Virus record (IMG/VR): IMGVR_UViG_3300031566_000011
Location: 17,625-81,624 of that record
Source: a virus
Taxonomy: Duplodnaviria > Heunggongvirae > Uroviricota > Caudoviricetes
Strand: one strand, 5' to 3'
DNA: 64,000 nt
A program made the position numbers and the translations under genes. The notes under the pieces are model-generated. The model did not search any database. It saw nothing but the letters and a program-made list of their open reading frames with translations, and was not told where the DNA came from. Every line of letters begins with the position of its first letter. The first letter of the stretch is position 1. Below, in pieces: positions 3,447 through 50,536 of this stretch.

Positions 3447-4612
3447 TGTTATCTAGTCAAGTTAGTAATCATTTAAAAGAAATATTACCTAAATATGCAG
3501 ATTTATTCTCAAAAGTTGTTGAGGTTTCTAGCGTTAATTATGTTATTGAAACAGATATCACTACAGTTACTTGTGTAACAGATGAACTTCATTATTTGGA
3601 ACAAGAATATCAAGAATATGGTGATGAATTATCTACAGAAGATAGATATATTTATCTTTCAAATGTCTTAGTTGGTAATAAAATATTATCAATAGAATCT
3701 GTATCAGGTATTGCTACTATAGAATTAGAAAATAGACATAGTTATGCTAATTATTTAACAGATATTTTTTATATACAAATAATAGATTCTGATGAAGAAG
3801 CAGTAAATGGAAGATTTAAGGTTTCAGAAGTTATAGATAATTATAACATAAAAGTTATTTTAGATACTAATTATACAGGAACTCCCACTGGTAATATGTT
3901 TTTTTTAGAAGAAAATAATTCAAAGGGATATGAGGGATATCATAAGGTTACTGAAATAGTAGATGATAAAACATTTAAGTTTGTATTGCCTTTTATTATT
4001 AATGGAGATGCTTTTATTGATAAATTTCGTGGAGATTATATAAAATGCCATGTAAGAATATTTGTTAGCGGATTTTCAAGTTTAAGAAATTTTATAGCTT
4101 GTGTATCTAAAAGTTTAAATGATGAATTTGTTGAAGAGGGAAAATGGAAGTGTGGTGTAATCGTAAATCCACCAATTGCATCAAAAAGTGCATATTCTAA
4201 TTCTGATAGCATGATGGGAACATTGAGGGTTGATGAATATAGGCAAACAATAGTTCAAAATATGAATATTGTAATGATGTGTCCTCTGCGAGATGAAACA
4301 TCTGGTATGTTAATGAATGAAAGATTACAAATATTAAGATCATATGTTTTATTATTAGCAGGAAGAGAGTTGGAAAGACCTTCTTTGTATGAGGGAAATT
4401 CTTTAATCCAACCAGTATATATTGGAGAAAATATTAATGAGGAGAATGATGCTTATTGTATCTATTCTTATAATTTTCAATCAATATATGAATTATTAAA
4501 TAAAGATGTATATTTAGGTAATAGAAATTATTATCCAATTACGGAATTCACAAATAGATATAAAGATAAACTAAATGTGAATATATTAAAAGAAGATAGG
4601 AGTATAATATGA
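3446..4612 (+). CDS. hypothetical structural protein preceding sheath
   Basis: 388-aa ORF. ATGA/ATGAG overlaps with flanking genes. Confidence 0.25.
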   Translation: MLSSQVSNHLKEILPKYADLFSKVVEVSSVNYVIETDITTVTCVTDELHYLEQEYQEYGDELSTEDRYIYLSNVLVGNKILSIESVSGIATIELENRHSYANYLTDIFYIQIIDSDEEAVNGRFKVSEVIDNYNIKVILDTNYTGTPTGNMFFLEENNSKGYEGYHKVTEIVDDKTFKFVLPFIINGDAFIDKFRGDYIKCHVRIFVSGFSSLRNFIACVSKSLNDEFVEEGKWKCGVIVNPPIASKSAYSNSDSMMGTLRVDEYRQTIVQNMNIVMMCPLRDETSGMLMNERLQILRSYVLLLAGRELERPSLYEGNSLIQPVYIGENINEENDAYCIYSYNFQSIYELLNKDVYLGNRNYYPITEFTNRYKDKLNVNILKEDRSII

Positions 4613-6183
4613 GTGGAACACAAATAGCGAGTAATCCAGTAGTTAATTTTGCTAATAACGGGGCATCAGGAGTTACTGCATCCCCTATGGTAAAAGCATT
4701 GATCGTAAATCAAAAGTCGGCATCAGGCACAGCCATTAGTGGTAAGCTTTATTCAAATATTAGTAATGATACTAATATTTATGAAGGATTATTTGGAAAG
4801 AATTCTATAATGAGTGCATGTATTAAATCATTCAAGGCTATTAATAAATATAGTCAACTTGATGTTATTTCATTGGATGACAATGTTGGTGGTGTTCAGG
4901 CAACTGGAAATGTAACATTCACTGGAACAACAGCAGGTGTTGCTGGAACAATTTATGTTACTATTGGTTCTAAAAAAAAGCATAAATATACATTAAATGT
5001 AGCATTTGGAGCTACACCAGATCAAATTGGAGATGCGTTAGCTGCTGCAATATTAGCAGATACTTATGCTCCTTTTACTAGTGTAAATACTAGTGGTGAT
5101 GTTGCTATAACATTTCTACACAAAGGAACAATAGGAAATAATATTTCTGTCCATGTTGAAGGTTCTGTAACTGGAATAACATTAGCGACAACTGCTTTTG
5201 CAGGTGGTGCTACTGACCCAGTTTTAACAACTTTATTCGATAATATAGATAGCATTAAATATAAAGCAATTATATATCCTTGCACTTATGATTTGGATGT
5301 TTTGGAAACATTAGTAGAAAGTAGAGTTGATTATGACAATATAGATTTAGCTGGTGTTGGATTTATTTCAAAAACAGATTCTAAGGCTAATTTAGTAACA
5401 TTGGGAGAGGCATATAATTCAAGAGCTTTAATTATTCATGGAAATGAAGTAAATAACAATACATTATTTAAAGGGTCAACTATTAAAGAATTTGATGATG
5501 TTATTATTACAAATTTTGTTGCTATTGATTTATTAAGATTGACACCAAATGCAGTTATTGGAAGTGGATATATAGCTAGTGTTGAATTAAATGATAATAT
5601 AGGTGGTCCTTCTTTGGCTTCATATCCATATTACAATACACCGTTATTTGATCTACCAGTTATTGAGGATGGTGATGGATTTACAAGAAGTGAAGTTAAA
5701 GAATTAAAAGATGCTGGTGTTTTTGTAATGTCTAATAATGTTGCAGGAACTACTCTTATAACAGATCAAGTAGTTACAACATACAAAACTAATGCTCTTG
5801 GTATTGTAGATGACAGTTTTAAATATTTAAATTATATAAGAACATACAACGAAGCAACAGCATATCAATTTACACGACTTAAAGCTGAATTAAATACAAG
5901 ATTAACACAAGGAACATCTGTTGCTGGGTATTCAGATATAAATGAAGTAGGAATAAAGGCTATAATGAAAGATTCTTATATAGAGCTTAGCGGTGGAACA
6001 TATTACTTATGTCCTAGAGGCATTAGTAGTGAAACTGGAAAAGATATAATTAAAGAATATGAAAATAATTTAAGTATTAATATATCTTACACTACAGGCA
6101 TAATAAGTATTTCACAAATATTGCCAATATTGGTTCAAGCAAGAATAATTAATGTTATATCTAATTTAACATTTAACATTTAG
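4609..6183 (+). CDS. tail sheath protein
   Basis: 524 aa. Position immediately before a small tube-like gene, chaperone and tape measure. Size and Gly/Thr/Val-rich composition typical of sheath proteins. Confidence 0.45.
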   Translation: MSGTQIASNPVVNFANNGASGVTASPMVKALIVNQKSASGTAISGKLYSNISNDTNIYEGLFGKNSIMSACIKSFKAINKYSQLDVISLDDNVGGVQATGNVTFTGTTAGVAGTIYVTIGSKKKHKYTLNVAFGATPDQIGDALAAAILADTYAPFTSVNTSGDVAITFLHKGTIGNNISVHVEGSVTGITLATTAFAGGATDPVLTTLFDNIDSIKYKAIIYPCTYDLDVLETLVESRVDYDNIDLAGVGFISKTDSKANLVTLGEAYNSRALIIHGNEVNNNTLFKGSTIKEFDDVIITNFVAIDLLRLTPNAVIGSGYIASVELNDNIGGPSLASYPYYNTPLFDLPVIEDGDGFTRSEVKELKDAGVFVMSNNVAGTTLITDQVVTTYKTNALGIVDDSFKYLNYIRTYNEATAYQFTRLKAELNTRLTQGTSVAGYSDINEVGIKAIMKDSYIELSGGTYYLCPRGISSETGKDIIKEYENNLSINISYTTGIISISQILPILVQARIINVISNLTFNI

Positions 6184-27469: not shown

Positions 27470-28138
27470 TTAATTATTTTTTAAAAAACATAATCTATCC
27501 AATCCAATAGAAATTTCAAAATTATTTATATTATTTTCAAAGTCATTCCTTAAAGACATACTACACACTTCTAAACCATTTATTATAATATCAGTAGTTT
27601 CAAGTGAATATTTAGGTAATCTGTCTGATAATTCCATTTCTACTTTATATTTACTAAATTCATTTTCATAAAAACTAAATATAAACTCTTTTAATATGTT
27701 TGGATAATCCGCTTTTGTTGTATTAGAGTATAATAATTGAAATTCTAATTGATAAAATTCTTTTAATCTTATGTTTTTAAAAGTTTTATCTTGTTCGTTT
27801 CTGAAAGATTTTCCAGATTGCCAAACACATAATGGAAGTTTAGCTTCATAATGTTTTAATAAATATTTCGCAATATTATAGCTCCCCTTTGTTGTTTCTG
27901 GTCTTAAACAAAAATCCTCATTAGTTTCAAATATATAATTTTTTTCTAAAAAATATTCATTATCTATACTTTCCTTATCTTGCAATAATGACGTTTCTAT
28001 TTGCCTAAAGTCAATTGCTTTATTTAATCTAAATAATTTATTTTTCAATTCAATTGATATATTTTTTATAAGATATTCTCTATTGAAAATATCTTTTTCA
28101 TCATAAAAAACAAATCCATTATTATTTATATTTTGCAT
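27470..28138 (-). CDS. class II aminoacyl-tRNA synthetase-like mini-protein (GlyRS-like catalytic core fragment)
   Basis: CLRPETTKG…KLPLCVWQSGKSFRNEQDKTFKNIRLKEFYQLEFQ matches GlyRS (alpha2-type) motif 2 (LRPETAQG…KLPF…IGNSFRNE…IRVREFTMAEIE). ISIGLDRL resembles motif 3. Only 222 aa and no anticodon-binding domain. Confidence 0.45.
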   Translation of the reverse strand: MQNINNNGFVFYDEKDIFNREYLIKNISIELKNKLFRLNKAIDFRQIETSLLQDKESIDNEYFLEKNYIFETNEDFCLRPETTKGSYNIAKYLLKHYEAKLPLCVWQSGKSFRNEQDKTFKNIRLKEFYQLEFQLLYSNTTKADYPNILKEFIFSFYENEFSKYKVEMELSDRLPKYSLETTDIIINGLEVCSMSLRNDFENNINNFEISIGLDRLCFLKNN

Positions 28139-28158: not shown

Positions 28159-31100
28159 TTATTGATAATACTCTATTCCTTCAACATCCCCAGAATTACA
28201 ATTTTCACAGTAATCTATCAATCCTTTTACCATAGTGCCACATTTAGAACACACACTAAATTCTGGTGATATAACAATTTGAGCAGTATTTGTATTATCC
28301 CATGTTTTTTTAACTAAATTATATATTGATTCTTTTGAAGGAAGATTTTCCCCAACAAAAGCATGTATAATTGCACCTGCTGCAATTAATGAGTGAAATT
28401 TACTTTGTTTTTCTATTCTTTCTGTTATCGGCATATCAATTGATGCATTAAAATGTATACTGTTGGTGTAATAATATGTATCAAGATCATCCCCCTTTAT
28501 ATAATTTTTACTTATTGGATATTCTTTTAAATCAACCTTAGCAAGTCTCCTAGATGTAGATTCTGCTGGCGATTCTTCTATTACACATTTTAAGCCAAAC
28601 TTTTCTGTAAATTTTTTTGTCTTTAAAAACATATTTGTAATAATTTTAATTCCAATTTTAAATGTTTCATCATCTTCATGTAATTCTTTTTCAGTTAAGA
28701 ACTGGACACATTCATTTAATCCTATTACACCAAATATGTAAGATGCAGAATTAAGATCAATATATGGAAACCCATCGCATGATGGTTGTCCTACATTATA
28801 CATAGGTGATCCTTTTGTGTCAAACATTTTTTGAATAAATTTTCTTTTTTGTATATGTGCATTCATTGCAATATCCATAGAAATTAAAATATCATCTATT
28901 GCTTCTTGTATATTTCCTTTTCCTGCTCTATATGCAGCCTGTGCAAGATTTATTGTTACATTTTGAAACCCACAATATCTCATATGTTCTGGATTTGAAA
29001 TCATAAGCATATCTTGTTTATTCTTCTCATCTAATGTCGTGCGGAGTCTACAGCAGGAAGATAATGTAATAGCATCTCTATCAAAAATAAAATATATAGA
29101 ACCATTTTTACTAGTAACTTCACAAGCAAAATTTAATAATTCTTTTTCATTTTCACGTTCAAAACTATTTTTTGTTATATGTAGGTCTATTTTTGGAAAT
29201 TCGAACAATCTTCCATTTTTATCACCAATCATTACTACTTCCATAATAGCTTTTGCGAACATTTGCGATTCTTTTTCATATTCAAAATATGTTTTCCCAG
29301 TGTATTCTCCTCCTTGTCCAATAGCCTGAACACAGCTCAAACTTTCGGGAATACCAGTATGTAGATTAAAATCAGTGAATAATGTATTATGTGCAAATAA
29401 TCCACACCCTAATAAAAAATTTTCATGTTCCCTAACAGAAATATCATAAACATATTCATCCTGTTCAGTGCTTTTATTTATACTAATTACTTCTAACGGT
29501 AATAATTTAATAGATTTTTCTATGTTGGTTATTAGTGTCTCCATTAAATTAATTTGGTTTTTTATTATTGTTTTTGCCATTTCAAATACTTTATCATTTT
29601 CTATATCTCTCATACAAAAGTTTCTATTAAATGTGTTTTGTAATGTATTTTTTGAAATATTATCAAATAAGTATAAATCCTCAAATACTTCCTTAATATT
29701 CTGTTTATTTATTTTAGTTGAATAAGATAAATATTCTTTAATAGCTTTTTTTGTTTTATCATATATTTCGTTTAATCTATTTTCTTTTATTTTATAACAT
29801 TTTAATGATATTTTACTTTTATAAACATTTTTTATATCTATTTTTAAATGATTATAATTATATTTTAATTGATTATAATTTTTTGTATTATTTATTTTAT
29901 GAGAATTAAAATTATTTAATAATTCATTTTTTTTATCATTATGCCTTTTTAGTAAAAAATCTATTTTATCAAAATTATCTATTCCTATAGTTAATCTATA
30001 TTGTTTTTTACTCTTTTTTACTAATTTATTATTTATAAATATATTTTTTTTAGGATAAATAATATCTTGCCTAACATTACATCCTATTTTTGAAAATGCT
30101 AAATGTAAATGCTTGGCTAAAATATTAGATACAGTAGAGCAACCAATCCTATTTTTACAAACCCATCCATCCCCTGATAAATATCCAGAAATAAAACTTT
30201 TAACAATATGTTTATTATTAAATAATATACAAGATGGGATTTGTTTTTCATAAACTATATTTCCAAACAAATTACAAAACAATATTCTTGCAAGTTTGTT
30301 TGATAATGTAACTTTATTTTTTTTTATAGATGCTTTTTTACCGAAAACATTGAAGAATAAATTTGAGATTATGGTTTTCATCTTTATACCTTCGAATATG
30401 TGTATTTCTATTGAATTGTCACATTCCCCACCATCTGCAACATACATGCCAGCCAATAATGCAAAATCATCATCAATATCTATAAACCTTTTTATTATAC
30501 CAATTTTATGTTTTTTATACCAAATATGAGTATTTGTATATTCAATTTCATCAATATCTTCTTTTGGAACATAATTCAATAAATCTATTTTTGGTATTTT
30601 TTTATTAATATCAAAATTAATATGACTTAAAAAATGTTCAGGCATAGAATTTGGATTGGTTTCATTTATTTTGCTATTTTTATCAATACTAAATAAACTG
30701 TGGTCTTCAGTAACACTTGTCTTTATTCCATTAGCACAAGTAATGTCTACTAATTTATTTTTTCTTTCATGTTTAACTGCCCCATAAATATCAGATAAAA
30801 CACATTCACCAGTTTCTTTGTTTAGACTAATCGCTTTATACTTATTTATATCATTCTTATTATCAAATTTATTATAAAATTCTTCTATGGTTGGAATTTC
30901 TATTTTTTGCGTAATTGTATTGTAAACATAAATAGTTTCACATCCTTTAATTGATTGCCCACCTCTAGAAAAGGCATTCTGTGACAAACTAAATACTAAA
31001 TATTGTGCTTCTTTTAACATTTCTTCATATGTCATACCAACTAAATATGGGGCATAAGATATGTTCACATATGATAACCCTAGTGCTCCTGCATAATATG

Positions 31101-33036
31101 CCTGCATAGATGCCAAGAATGTGTTTATATGACCTGTTAACGTATGTGCATGTTTTGCAGGTGAGGATTTTGTAGAAATATTATGTAAATCTAATCCATA
31201 TTTTTTTATATACTCAATAGAGTGAGCTCCACAATTATGTAATAACAACCCATTACTAGCAAACAATCCAGTTTCTGTTGTTATGTCATAAACAAAGTCT
31301 CTTTTATAATCAACTTCTTTAATATTTCTAACTAAATATGTGTCATGAAAAACTTTATTATCACAGAAAATAAAACTATTATTATCTATATGTTTTGATA
31401 TTTTATAAGACTTAGAAAATAGATGTTTTTTATCTTCTGATATATTAAAAGTTAATCTATATAAAGGATAATTAGCTTTAATTTTTGAATTTTTATAAAA
31501 CCCAACATAATTCAAGTTTGATTTTATTCCATTGTTTGTTAATATTTCTTGCATTTGTGATAATAAAACTTTTGAAGTTAATCTAATATTAATATTTGTA
31601 GAACTATTTTTTATAGTATTGCCTTTAAAGTTTTTAAGAGTTCCTTCTGCATCTATAACTCCATTAATTAAAGCAAATTGTTCATTTAATGATAACTCAA
31701 AAACATTGTTTGGAAATTGTCTTTGATATTGATAATATCCTAATGTTAATGTTTTTAATAAAAAATCTCTAAAACTTTTTTCATATATTCTAAAATATTT
31801 TTTCTCTTCATTATATCCAAATGAAATTTCTTTATCTATAAAGTATTGTTTAATGTTTTTTATATTTTCAATCCCAGTAACTGTTATATCATTATGGTTA
31901 AAACTTCCATCTCCTATAAACATTCCTAAAAAATAGCAAAAATCTTCGTCAAATTTTATTGTTTTGCCTTTAATTAAAACTTCTTTTTGTGTTTTAAAGT
32001 TATTTGTGTTAAAATTTTGCTCTATTAAAAAGTTATTTATTTTTACATCTTTTGCTTTTAATTCTATTATATTCGTATCAAATGTTTCAAGTTGGCTTTT
32101 AAATTGTCTATTGCAGTCTTTACATTTATAAGCCCTAGTATTTTTTATAATATTTTTATTACCATTTCTGATAACATTATTTGATTTACAATATTTACAT
32201 TCTGGCATATTAAAAGTATTTTTTTTAACTAACATAGAATGGTTTTCTGTCAATGTAACACTTTTTCCATTTAATGTTTGAATACTTAACATTCTTTTAT
32301 TGTTGTTTTTTATTTTTGTTACAAAATTAAGTGGTATAAATTTATTTTTCTCATAAATTTGGTATCCAATAGTTTTTTTTCTAAATATTCCTTCCTCAAC
32401 TTCTAACTCTTCTTTATCAATAGAATCGTATAAATTTTCCATAGAATATGATTTTATATTATTATTAATATCTTTTATAATAACGTGTTCATTATCTGGA
32501 AAACAATAAATTTTTTGGGGTGTTCCTAAATCATGTAAATGTATTCTACCTTTCAAATGTGCTTCTTTAACTTCTTTTGAAAATACATTATTTAAACCAT
32601 ATTGTTTTAATATTGTTTCTGATATTGCCATATTTACAGCTTCTGGATTATTCGCTACTATATTGCTATTTTCGTTGCTTTTATTAAACATTAAGTCTTC
32701 TATGGAATGTTTAGGCATCAAGTATGAGTCTTGTTGTTCTAACTGCTTTAAAAGTCCCATATCTAACAATTCATTATTAACAAGTTCTCTTATTAAACTT
32801 GTAGATAATGTTTTTATTCCAGAATTTATAATTTTCTCCTGTACTTTATGAGAAATTTCTATTGCAATATCTTTTTTTATATTGCTTTCTTCTCTTAAAA
32901 CTTCGACTATTTTATTGCTATCAAAACCTGTTAATTCATAATCAACTTCATCTTCTACTAATAAAACATTATCCGTACTATCTGCTTTATTATTTTTTTT
33001 CTTTTTTACTTTAATTTCTTTTATTTTATCTTCCAT
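28159..33036 (-). CDS. nrdD: anaerobic ribonucleoside-triphosphate reductase NrdD interrupted by two inteins
   Basis: N-terminal ATP-cone. NrdD signature HLKGRIHLHDLG. C-terminal Zn-ribbon CSKC…CENC. Extein sum is about 682 aa. Two insertions begin with Cys and end with HN followed by C/T. Confidence 0.85.
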   Translation of the reverse strand: MEDKIKEIKVKKKKNNKADSTDNVLLVEDEVDYELTGFDSNKIVEVLREESNIKKDIAIEISHKVQEKIINSGIKTLSTSLIRELVNNELLDMGLLKQLEQQDSYLMPKHSIEDLMFNKSNENSNIVANNPEAVNMAISETILKQYGLNNVFSKEVKEAHLKGRIHLHDLGTPQKIYCFPDNEHVIIKDINNNIKSYSMENLYDSIDKEELEVEEGIFRKKTIGYQIYEKNKFIPLNFVTKIKNNNKRMLSIQTLNGKSVTLTENHSMLVKKNTFNMPECKYCKSNNVIRNGNKNIIKNTRAYKCKDCNRQFKSQLETFDTNIIELKAKDVKINNFLIEQNFNTNNFKTQKEVLIKGKTIKFDEDFCYFLGMFIGDGSFNHNDITVTGIENIKNIKQYFIDKEISFGYNEEKKYFRIYEKSFRDFLLKTLTLGYYQYQRQFPNNVFELSLNEQFALINGVIDAEGTLKNFKGNTIKNSSTNINIRLTSKVLLSQMQEILTNNGIKSNLNYVGFYKNSKIKANYPLYRLTFNISEDKKHLFSKSYKISKHIDNNSFIFCDNKVFHDTYLVRNIKEVDYKRDFVYDITTETGLFASNGLLLHNCGAHSIEYIKKYGLDLHNISTKSSPAKHAHTLTGHINTFLASMQAYYAGALGLSYVNISYAPYLVGMTYEEMLKEAQYLVFSLSQNAFSRGGQSIKGCETIYVYNTITQKIEIPTIEEFYNKFDNKNDINKYKAISLNKETGECVLSDIYGAVKHERKNKLVDITCANGIKTSVTEDHSLFSIDKNSKINETNPNSMPEHFLSHINFDINKKIPKIDLLNYVPKEDIDEIEYTNTHIWYKKHKIGIIKRFIDIDDDFALLAGMYVADGGECDNSIEIHIFEGIKMKTIISNLFFNVFGKKASIKKNKVTLSNKLARILFCNLFGNIVYEKQIPSCILFNNKHIVKSFISGYLSGDGWVCKNRIGCSTVSNILAKHLHLAFSKIGCNVRQDIIYPKKNIFINNKLVKKSKKQYRLTIGIDNFDKIDFLLKRHNDKKNELLNNFNSHKINNTKNYNQLKYNYNHLKIDIKNVYKSKISLKCYKIKENRLNEIYDKTKKAIKEYLSYSTKINKQNIKEVFEDLYLFDNISKNTLQNTFNRNFCMRDIENDKVFEMAKTIIKNQINLMETLITNIEKSIKLLPLEVISINKSTEQDEYVYDISVREHENFLLGCGLFAHNTLFTDFNLHTGIPESLSCVQAIGQGGEYTGKTYFEYEKESQMFAKAIMEVVMIGDKNGRLFEFPKIDLHITKNSFERENEKELLNFACEVTSKNGSIYFIFDRDAITLSSCCRLRTTLDEKNKQDMLMISNPEHMRYCGFQNVTINLAQAAYRAGKGNIQEAIDDILISMDIAMNAHIQKRKFIQKMFDTKGSPMYNVGQPSCDGFPYIDLNSASYIFGVIGLNECVQFLTEKELHEDDETFKIGIKIITNMFLKTKKFTEKFGLKCVIEESPAESTSRRLAKVDLKEYPISKNYIKGDDLDTYYYTNSIHFNASIDMPITERIEKQSKFHSLIAAGAIIHAFVGENLPSKESIYNLVKKTWDNTNTAQIVISPEFSVCSKCGTMVKGLIDYCENCNSGDVEGIEYYQ
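29386..30942 (-). mobile_element. intein 2 in NrdD (519 aa) with LAGLIDADG homing endonuclease
   Basis: Begins …GGQSIKG|CETIYVY and ends …GLFAHN|TLFTDF. LAGLIDADG motifs FALLAGMYVADGGE and KSFISGYLSGDGWV. Confidence 0.7.
31234..32505 (-). mobile_element. intein 1 in NrdD (424 aa) with LAGLIDADG homing endonuclease and C2C2 zinc finger
   Basis: Begins HDLGTPQKIY|CFPDNEHV and ends …GLLLHN|CGAHS. Internal LAGLIDADG motifs FCYFLGMFIGDGSF and FALINGVIDAEGTL. Zn finger CKYCKS…CKDCNRQF. Confidence 0.7.
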
Positions 33037-44274: not shown

Positions 44275-44302
44275 TTGACAAATAAATTATAATATATATA
44301 AT
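44275..44302 (+). promoter_or_regulatory. sigma70-like promoter upstream of tRNA-like RNA cluster
   Basis: TTGACA (44275-80) - 16 nt - TATAAT (44297-302). Confidence 0.4.
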
Positions 44303-44358
44303 TGTATATAGATGTTGTTTTATATATTTTCCAAATCATTGGCGTATAATAGAGATAC

Positions 44359-44407
44359 TTCGTCTGATAAACGACAGGTCGTAGGTTCAAATCCTACTAG
44401 ACCACCA
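44359..44407 (+). tRNA. tRNA-Ile(GAU)-like 3' half (positions 27-76)
   Basis: TTCGT-CTGATAA-ACGAC anticodon arm (loop CUGAUAA, anticodon GAU), variable AGGTC, T arm GTAGG-TTCAAAT-CCTAC, TAGACCA + CCA. Confidence 0.5.
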
Positions 44408-44434
44408 AAGTCTATAGCTCAGGTTGGTAGAGCG
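44408..44434 (+). tRNA. tRNA-Ile-like 5' half (positions 1-26)
   Basis: AAGTCTA-TA-GCTC-AGGTTGGTA-GAGC-G. D arm almost identical to the bacterial tRNA-Ile D arm. GTCTA pairs with the TAGAC of the preceding piece. Confidence 0.45.
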
Positions 44435-44530
44435 GTAAAGAGTTCTCTATTATATTGCTATATGGGTTGGAATTTTTTAAAATTAAAAGATAGATAGTGT
44501 ATAATACAAACACTTTAAAAATAAATATAT

Positions 44531-44685
44531 TGTGCAGTGGAGAAATTAGTAGCCTCTTATTGATTCGGTGTTAAGTTGCAACTAACTTGCAAGATAGAGT
44601 AACCTCTGGAACGATGAAGCTGAATACCTCTATGCCGAAGGTAAGATTCAAAGTCAGCGAGTGGGTGCAATTCCCACCTGCACAT
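44531..44685 (+). ncRNA. tRNA-like RNA A (about 155 nt) with about 90-nt insert in the anticodon region
   Basis: 7-bp closing stem TGTGCAG/CTGCACA, D-arm-like GAGA-AATTAGTAG-CCTC, T arm GTGGG-TGCAATT-CCCAC. No contiguous anticodon hairpin. Internal hairpin TTGCAA-CTAAC-TTGCAA. Confidence 0.35.
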
Positions 44686-44712
44686 AATATTTATAATAAC
44701 TCGCCAAGAAAA

Positions 44713-46070
44713 CCGCATGTTCTTTAGACGTGCGGATGAATTGGCGTATTTCTTTCAATTTTTGATGTATTTAAGCACTTAAAAACATTTTTTGCATAAA
44801 ATAACAAAACAACAAGGAAGTCAAGATGTTTGTTAGGTATAATTACCGATTAAAACCAACGCCAGAGCAAGACCAACTGCTACGTCAAGTGGCAGGTAGT
44901 CAACGTTGGCTTTGGAATCACTTTCTTGCACAAGAAATAAAGCAATATAAAAAAGATAAATCGTTTAATTTCTACAATAAAAATGCAGCATCTTTACCAA
45001 GTCTTAAAAAGGATTATGAATGGTTAAAAGATGGACCATCTCAATCCTTACAGCAGACTTTGAAGGATTTGAATAATGCATTGAGTAATTCATTCAAAAA
45101 ACCAGAGCGTGGCTTCCCTAAATTTAAGAAGAAGAAAGAATTTAATGAGACCTTTCGTGTTGTTCAAACCCCTGAGAAATGGAAAGGCAAATACGGACAT
45201 ATCTATATAGATATACCTAAAATTGGTAAAGTGAAATGGAACTACCATCGTTCTTTACCAAATACCTTTAGTACTGCTACTGTATTGCTTGATGGAGATA
45301 AGTGGTATATTAGCATAGTTATAGATGTAGAAACAAAACAGCCTGTTGATATAAAAAATATAAATCAAGTAGTAGGAATTGATTTAAATAGCAAAATGTT
45401 GGTTGTTACATCAGATGGAGAACTAATAGATAACCCTAAGTTCTTCAAACAACAAAAACAACGCATTGCCAAAAAGCAACGCCAAATAAGCAAGAAAACA
45501 AAAGGTTCAAATAGATACAAAAGAAAACAAAAAGAGCTATATAATGCTCATAAAAACGCAAGACATCAAAGAACCAATCATTTACATCAAGTCTCAAATC
45601 AGATAACCAATGATTATGATTTGATTTGCACAGAAGACCTAAACGTAAAAGGAATTCAACAATTTAATGGCACTATAGTTAATGATGCAGGATGGTCCAG
45701 ACTGTTAGAAATGATAAAATATAAATCTTTGTTGAAGGGTAAGCATATGGTACAAATACACCGTTTTGCACCCTCAAGTAAGACTTGCAATCATTGTGGA
45801 ACAATGAAAACCATTAAGTTATCAGAAAGAACATATAGTTGTGAAAATTGTGGAACTACTTTAGATAGGGATATAAATGCCGCACTAAATATACGTGATT
45901 GGGGTTTGTTTGATTTTAATACTCCTGGGACGGGAGAAATTTACGGACGTGGAGATACCTCTGTTGGGGTAGATAAGTCAGGACACTTACCTACTAGATA
46001 CGTATCATTGAATCGTCAAAAGTTCCAAAGCAATATGTCTTTGGAAGCCAAGTGATCTTTAGTCGCTTGG
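44713..46070 (+). mobile_element. IS200/IS605-family tnpB-only element (IS1341-like)
   Basis: LE hairpin CCGCATG-TTCTTTAGA-CGTGCGG (44713-35) and RE hairpin CCAAGTGA-TCTTTAG-TCGCTTGG (46048-70) share the loop motif TCTTTAG. They enclose tnpB. Confidence 0.45.
44826..46055 (+). CDS. tnpB: TnpB (OrfB) RNA-guided nuclease family protein
   Basis: MFVRYNYRLKPTPEQ… N-terminus. RuvC-like core. C-terminal Zn finger CNHCG…CENCG. 409 aa, typical IS605 OrfB. Confidence 0.8.
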   Translation: MFVRYNYRLKPTPEQDQLLRQVAGSQRWLWNHFLAQEIKQYKKDKSFNFYNKNAASLPSLKKDYEWLKDGPSQSLQQTLKDLNNALSNSFKKPERGFPKFKKKKEFNETFRVVQTPEKWKGKYGHIYIDIPKIGKVKWNYHRSLPNTFSTATVLLDGDKWYISIVIDVETKQPVDIKNINQVVGIDLNSKMLVVTSDGELIDNPKFFKQQKQRIAKKQRQISKKTKGSNRYKRKQKELYNAHKNARHQRTNHLHQVSNQITNDYDLICTEDLNVKGIQQFNGTIVNDAGWSRLLEMIKYKSLLKGKHMVQIHRFAPSSKTCNHCGTMKTIKLSERTYSCENCGTTLDRDINAALNIRDWGLFDFNTPGTGEIYGRGDTSVGVDKSGHLPTRYVSLNRQKFQSNMSLEAK

Positions 46071-46108
46071 TAGTTCACATGCACTTGAAATATAACTAAA
46101 GGAATATT

Positions 46109-46369
46109 ATGAAAAAAAATAAAAAAGAAATATTAAAAAAAATAACAAAAACAGAAGTATTTGAAAATATCAAGAAGGCTATTTTTCTTGGTGTTATTAT
46201 TAGCTATATTTTATATTATACAGGAAATAAGAATTCATTAGATATAAAGAGTATTATTAAATTACAGGCATTTATTTATTGTTTAGATGTATTTATAGAA
46301 TATAATATAAAATATATCATTGCGATATATTCAACAATAAAAGAAAGTTTATATATTGATAAAGAATAG
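46109..46369 (+). CDS. hypothetical small membrane protein
   Basis: 86 aa with TM segment AIFLGVIISYILYYTG. Confidence 0.25.
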   Translation: MKKNKKEILKKITKTEVFENIKKAIFLGVIISYILYYTGNKNSLDIKSIIKLQAFIYCLDVFIEYNIKYIIAIYSTIKESLYIDKE

Positions 46370-46409
46370 GATTGTAGCTCAATGGTAGAGCATTACACTG
46401 TTAATGTGG
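46368..46409 (+). tRNA. tRNA-Asn(GUU) 5' fragment (acceptor-5', D arm, anticodon arm; no T arm or 3' end)
   Basis: AGGATTG-TA-GCTC-AATGGTA-GAGC-A-TTACA-CTGTTAA-TGTGG. Canonical through the anticodon arm, then runs into the methylase fragment ORF. Confidence 0.4.
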
Positions 46410-46742
46410 TGGTTGAAAACTAACAAAGATGGTTCTCCCTTCTTTGGAATAGGATATTATGCCAAGTCAAACCAAGAAGTTTGTTTATTAGCCGTAAAAG
46501 GGAAGGGGCATTCTTTAGTCAAATCAAATAGCGTGTCAAGTTTTGTTAGTACAAACAGAACTAAACATAGCGAAAAGCCACAAATATTCAGGGATAAAAT
46601 TGTTGAGCTGTTCGGTGATTTACCACGAATAGAACTTTTTGCCAGACAAAAGACAGAAGGTTGGGATGCATTAGGATTTGATATTGATGGAAAAGACATA
46701 AAAGAAAGCATACAACTACTTGCACAAAATAAATCTTTGTGA
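46404..46742 (+). pseudogene. MT-A70-family adenine methyltransferase, C-terminal fragment
   Basis: …GIGYYAKSNQEVCLLAVKGKG…KHSEKPQIFRDKIVELFGDLPRIELFARQKTEGWDALG matches the MT-A70 C-terminal pattern. The DPPW catalytic N-terminal half is absent. Confidence 0.45.
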
Positions 46743-47023: not shown

Positions 47024-47224
47024 TTGCTTTTTAACCAGAAATGTAGTATATTTAAGGAGTGGAATATGAAAGTCATAAAGGTAACGAAAGAGTATTTCCA
47101 GACGGAAGACGAGAAAGTTTACTTCTTCGAGCCTTTGGAAAATGAAATATCCGTTGAGGATATGCAGAAGATTGTTGATGCAAACGAAAAGCTAGTTAAG
47201 GATTTGAAAGATGGAAGTAAATAA
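47024..47224 (+). CDS. hypothetical small protein
   Basis: 66-aa ORF with RBS AAGGAG. Overlaps the start of the following methylase gene. Confidence 0.25.
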   Translation: MLFNQKCSIFKEWNMKVIKVTKEYFQTEDEKVYFFEPLENEISVEDMQKIVDANEKLVKDLKDGSK

Positions 47225-47972
47225 AATCTACTGTGAAAACTGCATTGATACTATGTCAAAAATGCCAGATGGTTTTGTTGATGTAATAGTAACAAGTCCA
47301 CCTTATGACGGATTACGAACCTATAATGGATATTCATTTCCATTTAAGGATATTGCAAAAGAATTATTTAGGGTAACAAAAGATGGCGGCGTGGTTGTTT
47401 GGATTGTTAGCGATGCAACTGTAAAAGGTAGTGAAAGTGGAACAAGTTTTAGACAAGCATTATACTTTAAAGAGATTGGATTTAATTTGCACGATACAAT
47501 GATGTATAAAAAGATAAACTATATTCCATTAACACATAATAGGTATGAGCAGGAGTTTGAATATATGTTCGTTTTTAGCAAAGGGAAGCCTAAAACCTTT
47601 AAACCTATAATGGTTGAGTGTAAAACAAAAGGAAGGAAAACAAATGGTAGAACATTTTATCAAACAAATAGCCAAAATACGCCAACAAAAGGACATAAAA
47701 ACGATGCAGTAAAAAAATATAAGCAAAAGGGAAATGTTTGGGAAGTACCTACTAATGCAGGGACAAAAGGACATCCTGCACAATTTCCAGAACAATTAGC
47801 AAACGACCATATCCTTTCTTGGAGCAATTATGGAGATTTAGTTTATGACCCATTTATGGGCAGTGGAACAACTGCAAAGATGGCTATCCTAAACAAACGA
47901 AATTATATCGGTAGCGAAATATCAAAAGAATACTGTGAAATTGCAGAGAAGAGAATAAATGAAAATATATAA
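47211..47972 (+). CDS. DNA methyltransferase (N6-adenine/N4-cytosine, beta class)
   Basis: SPPY (…VDVIVTSPPYDG…), HPAQFP, DPFMGSGTT motifs in beta-class order. 253 aa. Confidence 0.7.
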   Translation: MEVNKIYCENCIDTMSKMPDGFVDVIVTSPPYDGLRTYNGYSFPFKDIAKELFRVTKDGGVVVWIVSDATVKGSESGTSFRQALYFKEIGFNLHDTMMYKKINYIPLTHNRYEQEFEYMFVFSKGKPKTFKPIMVECKTKGRKTNGRTFYQTNSQNTPTKGHKNDAVKKYKQKGNVWEVPTNAGTKGHPAQFPEQLANDHILSWSNYGDLVYDPFMGSGTTAKMAILNKRNYIGSEISKEYCEIAEKRINENI

Positions 47973-48576
47973 AATCACAGAAGCAAGCGAATATTTGGGA
48001 GTGTCAATCAATACACTAAAGACACTTGCCAACAACGGAAAGATAAAGTCTTTCAAGACTACTGGAGAGCATAGGCGTTTTCGTAAAGATGATTTAGACG
48101 CTTATATGGGTGTCTAGAGAGAGAAGCAAGAAAAGTTGACTGTGATTTATGCCAGATGTTCTACAGCCAAGCAGAAAGAAAATCTTGAACGCCAGAAAGA
48201 TAGACTAAGAAAGTATGCTGAAAATAAAGGATATAAATTTATCCTGATTGATGAGATTGCGAGTGGGATAAACGAGAAACGAAAAGGCATACACAAACTT
48301 ATTAAGTTATGTTTTGATGGTAAAGTTGAACGCATCCTGATTGAGTATAAAGATAGACTTGCAAGATTTGGATATGAATATCTTGATGCTATTTTCAAGA
48401 ATTTGGAAATCACGGTTGAAGTCGTTGAGACAAAAGAAAAGAGATATGAAGAAGAATTAGCAGAGGATATTATGAAAATTCTTACCTGTTATTCCGCTCG
48501 TTTTTACGGAAGAAGGGGCGGTAGAAAGAAGAAAAATACGGTTGAAAATGAGCCCGACGAATCTAATGGAATTTAA
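47959..48576 (+). pseudogene. IS607-like TnpA serine recombinase (MerR-type HTH + resolvase catalytic domain) with in-frame TAG in linker
   Basis: MKIYKITEASEYLGVSINTLKTLANNGKIKSFKTTGEHRRFRKDDLDAYMGV-TAG-REKQEKLTVIYARCSTAKQ…. One frame, TAG at 48116-18. GC-richer patch. Confidence 0.5.
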
Positions 48577-48775: not shown

Positions 48776-49966
48776 ATGCTCAATTCAACAAAAGTAAAAA
48801 TAATAGTTGTAGTTACGGCTATTTTTCTAGCTATTTTTGCAGGCAAAATTTTCGAAACAAATAATTCAGGTTACTATCTAATCAAACAAGCAGCTTTAAC
48901 TGGAAAGGTATCTGCTATCAATAGGACAGGAGTAATTTTACAGGCATTTGGTAGTATTTTCAAATATCAGTTATCAGGGATGTATCATTTTTCATCAAGC
49001 AATCTAGATGGTGGAAGCGGACAAGAATCAGACCCAATTACTGTGAGATTTAATGATGGTGGAACAGCTGATGTTTCAGGGTCTATTAAATTTAAGTTGT
49101 CATCAAATAATGATAATCAAAAAGAATTACATGAAGATTTTAAAAGTTTTAGGGCTGTTCGTGTTGATTTAATTAGACAAGTAGTTGCTGAAGCATTAAT
49201 GCAAACTGCTTCTATAATGAAAGCAGAAGAATCGTATAGTTCAAGACGTGCTGAATTTACGGCATTAGTTGAAGACCAAATTAAATATGGTATTTATGAT
49301 ACTGAATTAATAGAAAAAATTACAAAGGATGCGGAAGGTAATGATTTCATTAAAAGAAGTGTAAAAATAATATATGACAAAACTGGAAAGCCTATTATTA
49401 GAAAACCTTCACCATTTCTTAGATATAAAATTGAAATTCTTCAATTTGTAATAAAAAATCTAGACTTTGATGCTACTATAGATAACTTGATTGCTAAAAA
49501 GAAAGAATCTGAACAACAAAGAGTTGTAGCAAGAGCAAATGCGGAAAAAGCAAAACAAGATGCTATCACAGCTAAAGAAGAAGGAAATGCTGCGATTGCG
49601 GTTGCAAAAGCAAAGAAAGAAGTAGAGAAAATTGAAGCGGTTACAAATGCTATGAAAGAATATGAGGTTGCTAAATATAACACATTAAAAGCTAAAGAAG
49701 AAGCGAATGCAAGATTGGTTAAACAAAGAGCAGAAGCAACAGCTAATAGACTTCTTGTGCAAGCAGGATTAACCCCTAAAGAGAGAGCGGAGTTTGCAAG
49801 GGATACTGCTATAGGTGTTGCAAAAGCAACAGCATCTTTCCAACCAGCACCAAATGCACAAATTGTTGTATTAGGTGGAAATGGTAAGGGCGGAGCTATT
49901 AGTCCATTCGAAATGCTAAACTTAAAAGCTATGAATGATATGCTTAAAAGTAAAAAGGTTTCATAA
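48776..49966 (+). CDS. SPFH/band-7 (flotillin-like) membrane protein
   Basis: N-terminal TM segment, SPFH core (…RAVRVDLIRQVVAEALMQTA…), Ala/Lys/Glu coiled-coil repeats. 396 aa. Higher-GC codon usage. Confidence 0.55.
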   Translation: MLNSTKVKIIVVVTAIFLAIFAGKIFETNNSGYYLIKQAALTGKVSAINRTGVILQAFGSIFKYQLSGMYHFSSSNLDGGSGQESDPITVRFNDGGTADVSGSIKFKLSSNNDNQKELHEDFKSFRAVRVDLIRQVVAEALMQTASIMKAEESYSSRRAEFTALVEDQIKYGIYDTELIEKITKDAEGNDFIKRSVKIIYDKTGKPIIRKPSPFLRYKIEILQFVIKNLDFDATIDNLIAKKKESEQQRVVARANAEKAKQDAITAKEEGNAAIAVAKAKKEVEKIEAVTNAMKEYEVAKYNTLKAKEEANARLVKQRAEATANRLLVQAGLTPKERAEFARDTAIGVAKATASFQPAPNAQIVVLGGNGKGGAISPFEMLNLKAMNDMLKSKKVS

Positions 49967-49980
49967 TTAATATATTATTT

Positions 49981-50140
49981 GGATATGTGGCGAAATAGGT
50001 AGACGCTAGTTGCGGTAAGATAGAACGTCTGGAAGTGTTGAATCCGAGAGCTGTTTCATGCGAAACTTTCTAACATGTTAAAATCCAGTATCTGGATACG
50101 AATCGACTATCATGCAAGGTGCAAATCCTTGCCATATCCA
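49981..50140 (+). ncRNA. tRNA-like RNA B (about 160 nt) with about 92-nt insert in the anticodon region
   Basis: Acceptor GGATATG/CATATCC+A. D arm GCG-AAATAGGTAGA-CGC (tRNA-Leu/Tyr-like). T arm CAAGG-TGCAAAT-CCTTG. Split anticodon stem AGTTG…CGACT. Insert shares AAGATAGA…CTGGAA…TGAA motifs with RNA A. Confidence 0.35.
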
Positions 50141-50166
50141 TTATTTAATAAAAAAGGAGAAATAAA

Positions 50167-50536
50167 TATGAATATAAGTTTGATGATTTATTTAGTAGGT
50201 GCAATGCATGGAATATGTGGTATTTTTACAGTTTTAAGTCTCTTGTTCTTTATAGGATTAATTATAGGAGCTGTATGTATTGACGATAGGGAGGAACTTA
50301 ATTGGATAAATAGCTTTCATTGGTATAAAAAAATCATTATTGGATTTTTATGTTTTTTTACTATAGCCTTCATGTTGCCAAGTTCTAAAACTTTATCTGC
50401 TATGTATTTAATACCTAAAATTACATCAAATGAGCAACTTAATAAAATACCTGAAAAAGCAGTGCATATTTTAAATTTAAAATTCAATCAATGGATTGAC
50501 GAGTTAAGTCCTAATGGTGACAATAAAGATGAATAA
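50167..50536 (+). CDS. hypothetical membrane protein
   Basis: From the internal Met: MNISLMIYLVGAMHGICGIFTVLSLLFFIGLIIGAV… with two or three TM segments. Track ORF 50075-50536. Confidence 0.3.

Follow-up and report, generated by a model that had tools for sequence, protein, structure and literature searches.

RNA B, a 160-nt element in the window (the whole 64-kb stretch of phage DNA analyzed here), is very probably a member of a widespread family of phage tRNA mimics, and not a tRNA that carries an intron. It keeps the acceptor stem, a tRNA-Leu-type D arm, the D and T loops that form the elbow, and the T arm, with the acceptor and T stems making a stack of 13 bp. The anticodon arm is wholly replaced by a linker of ~10 nt and a long lineage-specific arm, which departs from the core at the site of the long variable arm in class II tRNAs. 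Joined to the mechanism considered below, this identity makes up our best explanation of the locus, and as a whole we hold it to be probably right. The parts are given in Table 1.

Table 1. Coordinates of RNA B, its parts, and RNA A in the window
Feature	Coordinates	Strand	Evidence or remark
RNA B, full tRNA-Leu-like scaffold RNA (acceptor 5' strand to discriminator A)	49981..50140	+	sequence; all family hallmarks present
RNA B acceptor 5' strand GGAUAUG	49981..49987	+	pairs with 50133-50139, 7/7 Watson-Crick
RNA B U8 G9 and D arm GCG-AAAUAGGUAGA-CGC, 3-bp stem, tRNA-Leu type	49988..50006	+	near-invariant or invariant alignment columns; by direct sequence reading GCG 49990-49992, loop AAATAGGTAGA 49993-50003, CGC 50004-50006
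RNA B linker UAGUUGCGGUAA, holds AGUUG	50007..50018	+	stands where the 5' side of the anticodon arm would be
RNA B variable domain	50019..50111	+	closed by GAUAG (50019-50023)/CUAUC (50107-50111); abuts AUG
RNA B A-U-G, T stem CAAGG, T loop UGCAAAU, CCUUG, extra C	50112..50132	+	CAAGG 50115-50119, TGCAAAT 50120-50126, CCTTG 50127-50131
RNA B acceptor 3' strand CAUAUCC and discriminator A	50133..50140	+	CATATCC 50133-50139, A 50140; UUA follows, no encoded CCA
RNA A, related but atypical tRNA-like RNA	44531..44685	+	GAG/CUC D stem, UGCAAUU T loop

An earlier note on this DNA, made from the sequence alone, had called the locus tRNA-like with a perfect acceptor, and that stands, with all seven pairs formed and an A as discriminator. 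The tRNA-like arms enclose ~105 nt with no anticodon loop. Absent from that note is the extra C50132, which separates the T stem from the acceptor strand; G50114-C50132 is a potential sixth T-stem pair. The note had also suggested searching related phages for the UGCAAAU T loop with an insert. Exact matches to the T arm number 122 in phage contigs. In 110 of these, a fitting D arm and an acceptor strand able to pair lie upstream, which, together with the family so defined, places the structure of RNA B beyond chance. At least 209 GenBank phage records (123 in another search) contain the same scaffold, the carriers being phages of Listeria, Enterococcus, Lactobacillus, Leuconostoc, Bacillus, and Brochothrix, and so do more than 119 IMG/VR contigs; metagenome contigs gave 34 pattern matches, ~25 of them scaffold members. 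In the records listed, these loci are almost always without annotation. Rfam 15 has no curated entry for the family, and no description of such a tRNA-Leu-like family was found in the literature, which is a weak negative as few subscription journals were covered.

Membership is defined by an explicit pattern and pairing rules. No covariance model was built, because a centre of 9 to 233 nt treated as an insert would incur ruinous penalties. We parsed 97 distinct members, and some counts are taken on 85 distinct centres or members or on 62 scaffolds. RNA B is a typical member. Its D loop AAAUAGGUAGA fits RAAUAGGUAGA and is the second commonest D loop of the family (11 members), and its T arm CAAGG-UGCAAAU-CCUUG fits YRRGG-UGCAAAU-CCYYR as the commonest variant (61/97). 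It also has the UG right before the T stem, the extra C, and a centre that lacks an anticodon arm and is closed by a helix abutting AUG. Several of these features were not used for selection: the U and G before the T stem occur in 84 of 85 distinct members, an extra nucleotide after the T stem in 95/97 (C in 93/97), and the extra G-C pair, which extends the acceptor/T stack to 13 bp, forms in 59 of 62 scaffolds. Of the 97 members, 62 have A as discriminator and only 3 encode CCA, and in one genome (L272) the canonical tRNAs encode CCA and the family member does not, so the CCA end is perhaps not needed.

The scaffold covaries as a folded RNA would. The 97 members have 56 different acceptor sequences, all of them complementary, with two-sided changes at 7/7 acceptor pairs and at 13 of the 16 scaffold pairs overall. 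The D stem occurs as GCG/CGC, GUG/CAC, GAG/CUC, and ACG/CGU, and the T-stem pairs covary too. The covariation score is 0.685, against 0.166 when shuffled and at most 0.135 with slid partners; the 100% pairing in this set is partly an effect of the selection criteria. The G-U pairs in the scaffold would be A-C mismatches on the opposite strand, so the fold is specific to the strand of RNA B. Across many phage genera and environmental contigs, ~45 scaffold positions vary little or not at all.

These patterns bear on two readings in which the RNA has no function. One would make the conserved arms DNA sites for recombination, attachment, or packaging that flank exchangeable cassettes, the RNA fold being incidental. 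The ultra-conserved arms of 20 to 25 nt around unrelated centres, with up to six such centres found behind one acceptor sequence, look much like this, and in temperate Firmicutes phages the element adjoins HNH/terS. DNA sites do not account for 56 acceptor variants that are always complementary, nor for the G-U pairs, and the element also occurs in tRNA arrays far from packaging genes and, in the window, in the gap between SPFH and a membrane-protein gene; we find this reading scarcely credible. The other would make RNA B a decayed tRNA-Leu pseudogene with a junk middle. Its centre has no detectable tRNA features and is not unusually stable, and degenerate copies do exist, such as the one in Listeria phage LP-048 that has lost G18/G19 and C56. 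Decayed copies would not keep ~45 near-invariant positions across genera while pairs in the acceptor, D, and T stems change in a compensatory way, nor would they retain the non-tRNA hallmarks, UG and extra C, in more than 95% of members, and we consider a functionless pseudogene very unlikely.

The reading that the family most directly affects is that RNA B is a real Leu/Tyr-like tRNA gene, with an intron or small ribozyme of ~92 nt in the anticodon stem, spliced to give a decoding tRNA. The earlier note had described a split anticodon stem, AGTTG (50008-50012) and CGACT (50104-50108), around an insert. These strands can pair, with one G-U, around 91 nt, but the survey of helices among members does not support them; it supports GAUAG/CUAUC abutting the conserved AUG. 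The scaffold is tRNA-Leu-like, as an intron-bearing gene would require, and ARAGORN with introns allowed (-i) calls RNA A as tRNA-Arg(tcg) with a 60-nt intron. That call is an artefact and carries no meaning, since 73% of sequences made of the A scaffold and a shuffled centre are called as well. RNA B is not called with introns of 0 to 200 nt, which makes an intron of the archaeal (bulge-helix-bulge) type unlikely, and the B scaffold with shuffled centres is called in 2 of 300 sequences. Excision would leave no anticodon loop: the candidate loop CGGUAAG lacks U33, and RNA B has no loop of the U33 type.

Nor does any intron or ribozyme class fit. Group I intron and ribozyme families of Rfam give no match to RNA B at E up to 10, so neither the ribozyme core imagined for the insert nor a known intron class with ordinary tRNA exons is borne out; the rest of Rfam has no matching family either. 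Group I introns have a P3-P7 core and the smallest known have ~200 nt; the centre here is ~91 to 105 nt. A canonical tRNA is excluded too, with no 5-bp anticodon stem, no 7-nt loop with U33, and tRNA finders silent on RNA B: ARAGORN reports no tRNA or tmRNA gene in the window, and the Rfam tRNA model RF00005 misses RNA B both at its gathering score and with E relaxed to 10. The family argues against an intron too, as the centres are mutually unrelated (~70 types) and run down to 9 nt in one member, and as the extra C builds a 13-bp stack that canonical tRNAs lack. An intron-bearing tRNA is thus already largely refuted, and we regard it as highly improbable.

What stands in place of the anticodon arm differs from member to member. 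The 85 distinct centres, 9 to 233 nt long, fall into 70 clusters, behind linkers that are mostly ~10 nt and purine-rich. Among the 79 members with a closing helix of at least 5 bp, the helix lies directly against AUG (offset 0) in 66. Its mean length is 6.2 bp against 5.0 bp in shuffles, so the sequence support for the AUG-abutting helix as a family feature is moderate. Centres are on average more stable than shuffles (mean z -0.77). The minimal scaffold is 61 nt, and most members carry long centres. Within subgroups the centres are conserved with compensatory changes (L160 vs L236). Rfam scans of 37 family loci find no known motif inside the variable centres. A group-I-like P3/P7 pseudoknot, considered for A and B, was rejected as a general feature, with linker-interior pairing of 5.36 bp against 5.47 bp in shuffles; in the Listeria subgroup, a linker-interior pseudoknot is possible from one compensatory change between L160 and L236.

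The centre of RNA B contains the blocks CUGGAA and UGAAU, and GUUUC/GAAAC and AUCCAG/CUGGAU are candidate hairpins in it. Thermodynamic folding gives three competing folds within 2.6 kcal/mol, and a z-score of ~0 makes the centre no more stable than its shuffles. Identical copies are found in four contigs (L123-L126) and a copy with one uncompensated SNP in a fifth (L269), so this centre offers no covariation data, and nothing is gained through SPFH synteny as the near-identical contigs share an identical RNA B. Diverged homologues of this type of centre, in A or in B, were not found.

RNA A had been taken together with RNA B as a small local family. A family does exist and the two have a motif in common, but it is a very large phage family and not a local pair, and RNA A is an outlier, alike to RNA B in scaffold type and in a short motif. 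It has CGA before the T stem, and so lacks the UG, and it has no extra nucleotide after the T stem. The UGCAAAU loop ascribed to both holds for B only, and the D and T loops of A are the ones found in a genuine tRNA-Ser(GCU) of another phage contig (L280). A promoter match of 10/12 lies near RNA A at 44476-44505, and 67 nt upstream of RNA A is a YrlA-like RNA (44339-44464; Rfam RF02553, 39.5 bits, E = 2.8e-7). That B is the second locus of its type within 6 kb is correct for the distance, the starts being 5.45 kb apart, but not quite for the type, as A is atypical; ~2.98 kb of that distance consists of two insertions absent in the sister contig L269.

The blocks said to be shared by the two inserts are there. 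In the 64-kb window, A and B alone contain AAGATAGA-N(2-12)-CTGGAA, with 0.01 expected by chance, and these two are also the only places where GGTGCAAWTCC occurs exactly. Whether the inserts are homologous, as had been claimed, is a matter of degree. Their local alignment scores 22, beyond most dinucleotide shuffles but reached by 31 of 2000, so on the sequence the similarity is real but modest. Part of the shared AAGAUAGA block is also the linker/helix junction that recurs in the family (a linker end AA, then GAU...). Scanning IMG/VR with AAGATAGA-N(2-12)-CTGGAA returned 120 chance matches and was uninformative; the strict pattern of D arm plus motif had no match in IMG/VR and, in GTDB genomes, two chance matches only, inside a Flavobacterium ferredoxin-type gene. 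An antisense search inside the window with the A and B centres gave nothing beyond chance.

Among known systems, class II tRNA-Leu is the closest in form. It shares with the family the 7-bp acceptor, U8, the 3-bp D stem, the loop GGAAUAGGUAGAC, G18 G19, a candidate A15-U48 pair, and mostly A73. That the D arm is close to tRNA-Leu, as first noted, is confirmed by annotated tRNA-Leu genes that match the 5' 20 nt of RNA B in unrelated phages (mycobacteriophage, Stenotrophomonas phage, cyanophage, and crAss-like genomes). Unlike tRNA-Leu, the family lacks an anticodon arm, has the T loop UGCAAAU with G at 55 in place of UUCRANY, adds the G-C pair of the stack, and does not encode CCA. One member (L212) just reaches the Rfam tRNA gathering score, at 29.8 bits.

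In tmRNA, as known from tmRNA-SmpB structures, a large domain sits on a long helix at the site of the class II variable arm. Its tRNA-like domain, as generally described, resembles RNA B in having an acceptor stem, a T arm, and a D-loop region and no anticodon arm. RNA B differs by a true D stem and by A3-U70 instead of G3-U70. Neither a tag reading frame nor conserved pseudoknots could be detected in RNA B, and with no ARAGORN or Rfam (RF00023) call, and no G3-U70, we reject it as a tmRNA. YrlA, the bacterial Y RNA (RF02553), is likewise a tRNA mimic of phages and bacteria with D-arm and T-arm modules. In the Rfam alignment of YrlA the T arm precedes an acceptor-like helix and the D arm, both inside an outer stem, whereas RNA B has the normal order, its acceptor lying at the two ends. 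The outer stem of YrlA binds Ro60; none of the scanned ORFs was recognized as a Ro60 gene. RNA B is not a YrlA, with no match in 49900-50220.

The Listeria sRNA RliG (RF02415) touches the family more directly, as the rliG model reaches 41 to 45 nt into the element, across the acceptor 5' strand and the D arm (L165, L210). Its Rfam entry is a plain Listeria sRNA outside the tRNA clan, and the model is mostly upstream leader. The RNA has been detected by RNA-seq, with expression in lysogeny (PMC7397523), and by northern blot (PMC1807966), and is dispensable for lytic growth (PMC7397523, PMC1807966); neither paper describes a tRNA-like nature. Through its overlap with the element, this transcript is indirect evidence that the family is made as a discrete, processed RNA. 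The variable part does not align between members, and RNA B itself has no match to the rliG covariance model, which has only the 5' part of the scaffold in common with the Listeria members.

The T4 species 1 and 2 RNAs (rnaC, rnaD) recall the family as small stable RNAs encoded where a phage tRNA array ends, and rnaC ends in a canonical T-arm hairpin. They have no sequence similarity to the family and no tRNA-Leu D arm, and acceptor pairing was not found, so the likeness is an analogy, not homology. For the T loop there is a further precedent in staphylococcal cell-wall tRNA-Gly, reportedly described by Roberts in the 1970s, which has U-G-C for T-psi-C and does not serve the ribosome. This is the change seen in UGCAAAU, but these are said to be complete tRNAs with anticodons. 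Some ordinary-looking phage tRNAs, namely Phe in L281 and Ser in L280, have a UGCAAAU or UGCAAUU loop as well, so the loop alone is no mark of a non-decoding RNA.

RNA B begins 14 nt past the SPFH stop and ends 27 nt before the next start codon, and no promoter or terminator was found around it. The position after SPFH in a GC-richer patch had been remarked before and is accurate, with G+C of 42% for RNA B and 44% for RNA A against 27% for the window. An ORF start at 50075 had been called across RNA B. SPFH relatives were not found in IMG/VR, and one SPFH homologue (L127, 60% identical) has no RNA after it. The same phage encodes a class II aminoacyl-tRNA-synthetase core of 221 aa that lacks an anticodon-binding domain (27470-28138), with homologues in jumbo phages of Caulobacter, Brevundimonas, Xanthomonas, and Sinorhizobium; the flanks fetched for these homologues contain no family member. 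Elsewhere, family members lie in or beside tRNA arrays, tmRNA, and ROOL RNA, one of them 4 nt past a phage tmRNA gene. The lytic Herelleviridae have the element inside tRNA arrays, like a separate gene. In Listeria phages its place is the leader of the late operon, with rliG/rli62 on one side and the mcrA RNA/HNH/terS on the other.

From this setting, and from the sequence, a mechanism can be proposed tentatively, and we think it plausible though rather doubtful. RNA B is probably transcribed within the SPFH operon, given the close flanking genes and the lack of a promoter or terminator of its own. Host tRNA-maturation enzymes would then excise it, RNase P at the 5' end and RNase Z after the discriminator, with CCA addition possible; the cuts would break the flanking mRNA in two as well. 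What results would be a stable RNA of tRNA shape that does not decode. Its conserved elbow may engage a conserved host tRNA-binding factor, and the variable arm would carry a lineage-specific activity. No partner protein was found. Cleavage by RNase P or RNase Z might suffer from the 13-bp stack and from G55 in the T loop, and if the Listeria RliG RNA consists of the leader plus the tRNA-like part, 5' cleavage there is at best partial.

The main competitor to such a trans-acting product is a signal that acts only in cis, a tRNA-like mark of punctuation or stability in a polycistronic mRNA. Such a signal would recruit RNase P and RNase Z to separate the cistrons, or shield the 3' end of the upstream RNA from exonucleases, and the RNA, once excised, would do nothing further. 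The tight fit of RNA B between its neighbors suits this, as do the leader position in Listeria phages and the rliG model running into the element. For punctuation, however, the minimal scaffold would do, and it does not explain long centres that are on average more stable than shuffles and are conserved within subgroups by compensatory changes. Nor does it suit the separate-gene placement in the lytic Herelleviridae or the promoter-like site of RNA A. We judge a purely cis-acting element unlikely, though worth weighing.

Returning to a trans-acting product, the family may be a natural tRNA scaffold, in which a tRNA-Leu frame matured by host tRNA enzymes presents an exchangeable cargo arm; this is speculation and improbable as it stands. 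The cargo arm could be a decoy, sponge, or guide against host tRNA-targeting defences or rival phages, and such a role would explain why it evolves fast. The frame may even be leucylated. Bacterial LeuRS ignores the anticodon, which makes leucylation conceivable given that A73, G18 G19, and the candidate A15-U48 pair are kept. A and B would then be two cargo carriers in one phage, which also encodes the mini-synthetase.

If the family is real, it concerns at least 209 sequenced phages, among them well-studied phages of Listeria, Enterococcus, Lactobacillus, and Bacillus. Annotation should no longer place ORFs across the element, as with gp64 and gp75 of Listeria phages B025 and B054 or the 50075 start here, and tRNA finders in intron mode are not trustworthy on this scaffold. 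The Listeria sRNA RliG gains a structural explanation. The family can be tested in tractable systems such as Listeria phi10403S/A118 and the Enterococcus phages. A near-invariant tRNA-Leu frame with a centre that is almost wholly different between close relatives is a pattern typical of an arms race or of a modular carrier. Other phage RNAs that await explanation (ROOL, YrlA, phage tmRNA, and the T4-type stable RNAs) occur alongside the family, and solving the family could explain a whole class of RNAs of the phage tRNA islands.

RNA B, the tRNA-like locus under study, belongs with a very large set of phage RNAs that have a tRNA-Leu-like scaffold with a variable center in place of the anticodon arm, and it has all the hallmarks seen in the parsed members. 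The arms, acceptor and sequence blocks listed for it in the earlier note are all present on reading the sequence. ARAGORN calls no tRNA or tmRNA in the entire window, and Rfam has no match to RNA B, neither at gathering scores nor with E allowed up to 10. As described before, the RNA lies right after an SPFH/Band 7 gene (48776-49966, stop 14 nt 5' of RNA B) in a GC-richer patch, with 42% G+C versus 27% for the window. A 122-aa ORF with RBS AAAGGAG has its likely start at 50168, 27 nt 3' of RNA B; a longer ORF reading from 50075 is mere read-through of the RNA. No promoter-like or terminator-like site was found between RNA B and its neighbor genes. The window phage is of a low-GC myovirus type, with tail sheath, baseplate, primase/helicase, and NrdD.

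Parts of RNA B and positions of other features in the window
Feature	Position	Strand	Detail
RNA B, entire	49981-50140	+	read from sequence
RNA B acceptor, 5' strand			GGAUAUG, then UG
RNA B D arm			GCG-AAAUAGGUAGA-CGC
RNA B linker	3' of D arm		12 nt, UAGUUGCGGUAA
RNA B center			93 nt; GAUAG at start, CUAUC at end; AUG next
RNA B T arm			CAAGG-UGCAAAU-CCUUG, then one extra C
RNA B acceptor, 3' strand			CAUAUCC, then discriminator A
RNA A	44531-44685	+	scaffold type and motif in common with RNA B
YrlA (bacterial Y RNA-like) candidate	44339-44464	+	5' of RNA A; 39.5 bits, E 2.8e-7; Rfam gathering score 69 not reached
TnpB-only IS200/IS605-type element	44700-46078		14 nt downstream of RNA A; absent in L269, otherwise 99.7% identical
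Second insertion versus L269	46971-48574		DNA methylase and serine recombinase
Class II aminoacyl-tRNA-synthetase catalytic core	27470-28138	-	221 aa; Pfam tRNA-synt_2b 36.6 bits
NrdD (anaerobic ribonucleotide reductase)	28159-33036	-	1625 aa

The search of other phages that the earlier note had proposed was productive. Sensitive blastn with RNA B matched 123 GenBank phage records, through 30 nt at each end, 5' and 3', at a spacing of 80-195 nt, and RNA annotation was absent at these sites among the matches listed. With only the scaffold as query, 209 records matched, among them Listeria 70, Enterococcus 37, Lactobacillus 18, Bacillus 13, Leuconostoc 13, and Brochothrix 6; annotated tRNA-Leu genes of unrelated phages, including the 19 Synechococcus-phage records, are matched as well, by just the 5' half. 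The exact 18-nt T-arm pattern occurs at more than 119 IMG/VR loci among the matches listed. In metagenomes, a pattern that asked only for the A/B-type D loop and, at a distance of 98-128 nt, the T loop matched 34 contigs; about 25 are scaffold members, and some T and D stems show compensatory differences from those of RNA B. Under explicit rules, with T loop UGCAAWU, a T stem of 5 bp, a D stem of 3 bp, and 7/7 acceptor pairs, 97 distinct members were parsed, and under looser rules 110 of 122 T-arm matches have a D arm and complementary acceptor upstream.

Because pairing was a selection rule, the figure of 99.8% paired is not independent; pair-type diversity, unlike that percentage, is informative. 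Across 62 distinct scaffolds, 13 of the 16 pairs have two-sided changes, and the covariation score is 0.685 versus 0.166 shuffled and at most 0.135 with slid partners. The family has 56 acceptor sequences, more than 12 kinds of T stem, and D stems GCG/CGC, GUG/CAC, GAG/CUC, and ACG/CGU. Since G-U pairs are present, the fold is specific to the given strand. Two features fall outside the selection rules, a U and G directly 5' of the T stem (84 of 85 distinct members) and one extra nucleotide 3' of it, which is C in 93/97. That G and the extra C are able to pair in 59 of 62 scaffolds, which lengthens the T stem to 6 bp and the acceptor/T stack to 13 bp. Bacterial tRNA-Leu has a Levitt-type A15-U48 pair, with which the conserved U before the T stem would be compatible.

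The center had been taken for an insert in a split anticodon stem. Among the 97 members it ranges from 9 to 233 nt, and one member, L145 (L-numbers are other phage, IMG/VR, or metagenome contigs), is 61 nt in total, too short for an anticodon arm. The 85 distinct centers form 70 clusters. With introns allowed, ARAGORN does not call RNA B; it calls RNA A, the second tRNA-like locus of the window, as tRNA-Arg(tcg) with a 60-nt intron, a call that is uninformative because 220 of 300 constructs with the A scaffold and a shuffled center are also called. On these lengths, the short L145, the 70 clusters, and the uninformative calls, we rejected an intron-bearing tRNA; nor does a known intron or ribozyme class appear, as no Rfam family was found in the centers of 37 family loci scanned. 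Acceptors carry up to six unrelated centers (GTCACTG 5, ATACTCG 6, GATGTGG 6) and a few center types are found on two different acceptors, so the center has the behavior of an exchangeable cassette. L155 (IMG/VR contig 2619618821_000002, ~4900-5110, minus strand) has a complete tRNA-Lys(UUU) nested in its center by ARAGORN, and canonical T-arm hairpins of GGUUCGAAUCC type are found in those of L151, L191, L244, L263, L286, and L293.

A helix is flush with the AUG in 66 of the 79 members having at least 5 bp, with a mean length of 6.2 bp versus 5.0 in shuffles. Its 5' strand starts most often about 10 nt past the D stem, frequently at a GAU directly after AA (GAUAG/CUAUC in RNA B), which explains part of the AAGAUAGA block common to A and B. 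Folding stability of the center exceeds that of shuffles in the family average (mean z -0.77) but not in RNA B (z about 0). The composite motif shared by A and B is indeed found at only these two loci within the window; of the proposed homology of their inserts, local similarity stands, but it is modest, with a score that 31 of 2000 shuffles attain.

RNA A was credited with the UGCAAAU T loop of RNA B but has UGCAAUU. It has no extra C, and directly 5' of its T stem CGA replaces the AUG of B. A genuine tRNA-Ser(GCU) on metagenome contig L280 has the same D loop (AAAUUAGUAGC) and the same T loop as RNA A. Given the missing hallmarks and tRNA-Ser-type loops, RNA A is not a typical member but a relative that stands nearer to ordinary class II tRNAs. 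UGCAAUU in Ser(GCU) tRNA (L280/L288) and UGCAAAU in Phe(GAA) tRNA (L281) occur in otherwise ordinary phage tRNAs with CCA encoded, so G55 alone is no mark of a non-decoding RNA.

A 10/12 promoter match lies upstream of RNA A, and a perfect sigma-70 consensus (TTGACA-16-TATAAT, 44275-44302) upstream of the YrlA-like RNA, which accounts for a weak tRNA match at 44340-44405 and an apparent "tRNA 5' half" at 44410. The window ORFs scanned include no Ro60/TROVE gene. The sister contig L269 is more than 99.6% identical and lacks two insertions, neither of which includes RNA A or RNA B. One holds a TnpB ORF (44826-46055) with OrfB_IS605 and Cas12f1-like TNB domains, the other an N6/N4 DNA methylase (47211-47972) and a small serine recombinase (48136-48576), with four more methylase genes or fragments around it. 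A degenerate tRNA-Asn(GUU)-like sequence at 46368-46445 (+; Rfam tRNA 30.1 bits, 13-nt T loop) overlaps two coding sequences, a small ORF at its end and an N-terminally incomplete MT-A70 methylase fragment at its start.

The synthetase core has motif 2 (FRNE) and motif 3 (IGLDRL) and no anticodon-binding domain; among solved structures it is closest to N. equitans NEQ417, the PylRS catalytic domain, and GlyRS. Jumbo phages of Caulobacter, Brevundimonas, Xanthomonas, and Sinorhizobium have homologs, as do 635-kb uncultured phages; in one of these uncultured phages the gene is directly 3' of a 6-tRNA array. The homolog flanks examined showed no connection to the RNA family. NrdD owes its length to an intein that carries a LAGLIDADG endonuclease domain. 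The family RNAs may be aminoacylated, but with discriminator A in 62/97 about a third lack A73, and the L272 member has no CCA (encoded in 3/97 members) although the same phage's tRNAs encode it.

Temperate Listeria phages have the gene order ArpU-type late regulator, rliG or rli62, element, mcrA RNA motif, HNH, terS, and in those of Brochothrix and Enterococcus the element is 3' of a transcription/ArpU-family regulator and upstream of or adjoining the terminase region. At a minority of loci, Pfam finds DUF722 and sigma-70 region 4 in ORFs on the upstream side, and HNH and terminase on the downstream side. In lytic Herelleviridae the element is within tRNA arrays, in one Enterococcus Schiekvirus directly 3' of the phage tmRNA (starting 4 nt past it in L129), and a canonical tRNA is close by at about a third of 60 loci. 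ROOL RNA (RF03087, 260-275 bits) adjoins members in L150 (667-1248) and L275 (640-1206), in L275 with a tRNA between. The Rfam rliG model covers the element's first 41-45 nt in L165 and L210; the rliG transcript was detected by northern blot (PMC1807966), and phi10403S expresses rliG during lysogeny but does not need it to produce virions (PMC7397523). Listeria phage LP-048 (L299) has a degenerate copy (3388-3528) directly 5' of tRNA-Asn, with a gene for an annotated "RNA-binding protein" ~3.3 kb further downstream; in P100-like Listeria phages this copy has a D loop without GG and the T loop UGAAAAU. In the transcriptome of the related phage CKA15, three extremely abundant unexplained RNAs lie at most 2 kb upstream of CKA15_055, a proposed Rsr (Ro60) homolog (PMC12282133).

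The family RNA has a tRNA-like core that is conserved, strand-specific, and unable to decode, joined to a hypervariable arm. Its frame comes from class II tRNA-Leu and its core-plus-arm topology is that of the tmRNA tRNA-like domain; YrlA is among the nearest known systems to RNA B, the Listeria sRNA RliG partly contains a family member, and T4 species 1/2 RNAs offer an analogy. Canonical tRNA, intron-bearing tRNA, tmRNA, YrlA, and rliG all failed their defining tests as the identity of RNA B, and we file it among the tRNA mimics, a known kind, as a form that is new relative to the literature searched. RNA B would be transcribed together with its neighbor genes and released through RNase P and RNase Z; U-rich sequence follows its discriminator with no encoded CCA, as is usual where RNase Z acts in Firmicutes. 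The element may act in trans or be only an mRNA punctuation or stability signal. The conserved elbow would be the contact for a host tRNA-binding factor, and the variable arm would supply a lineage-specific activity.
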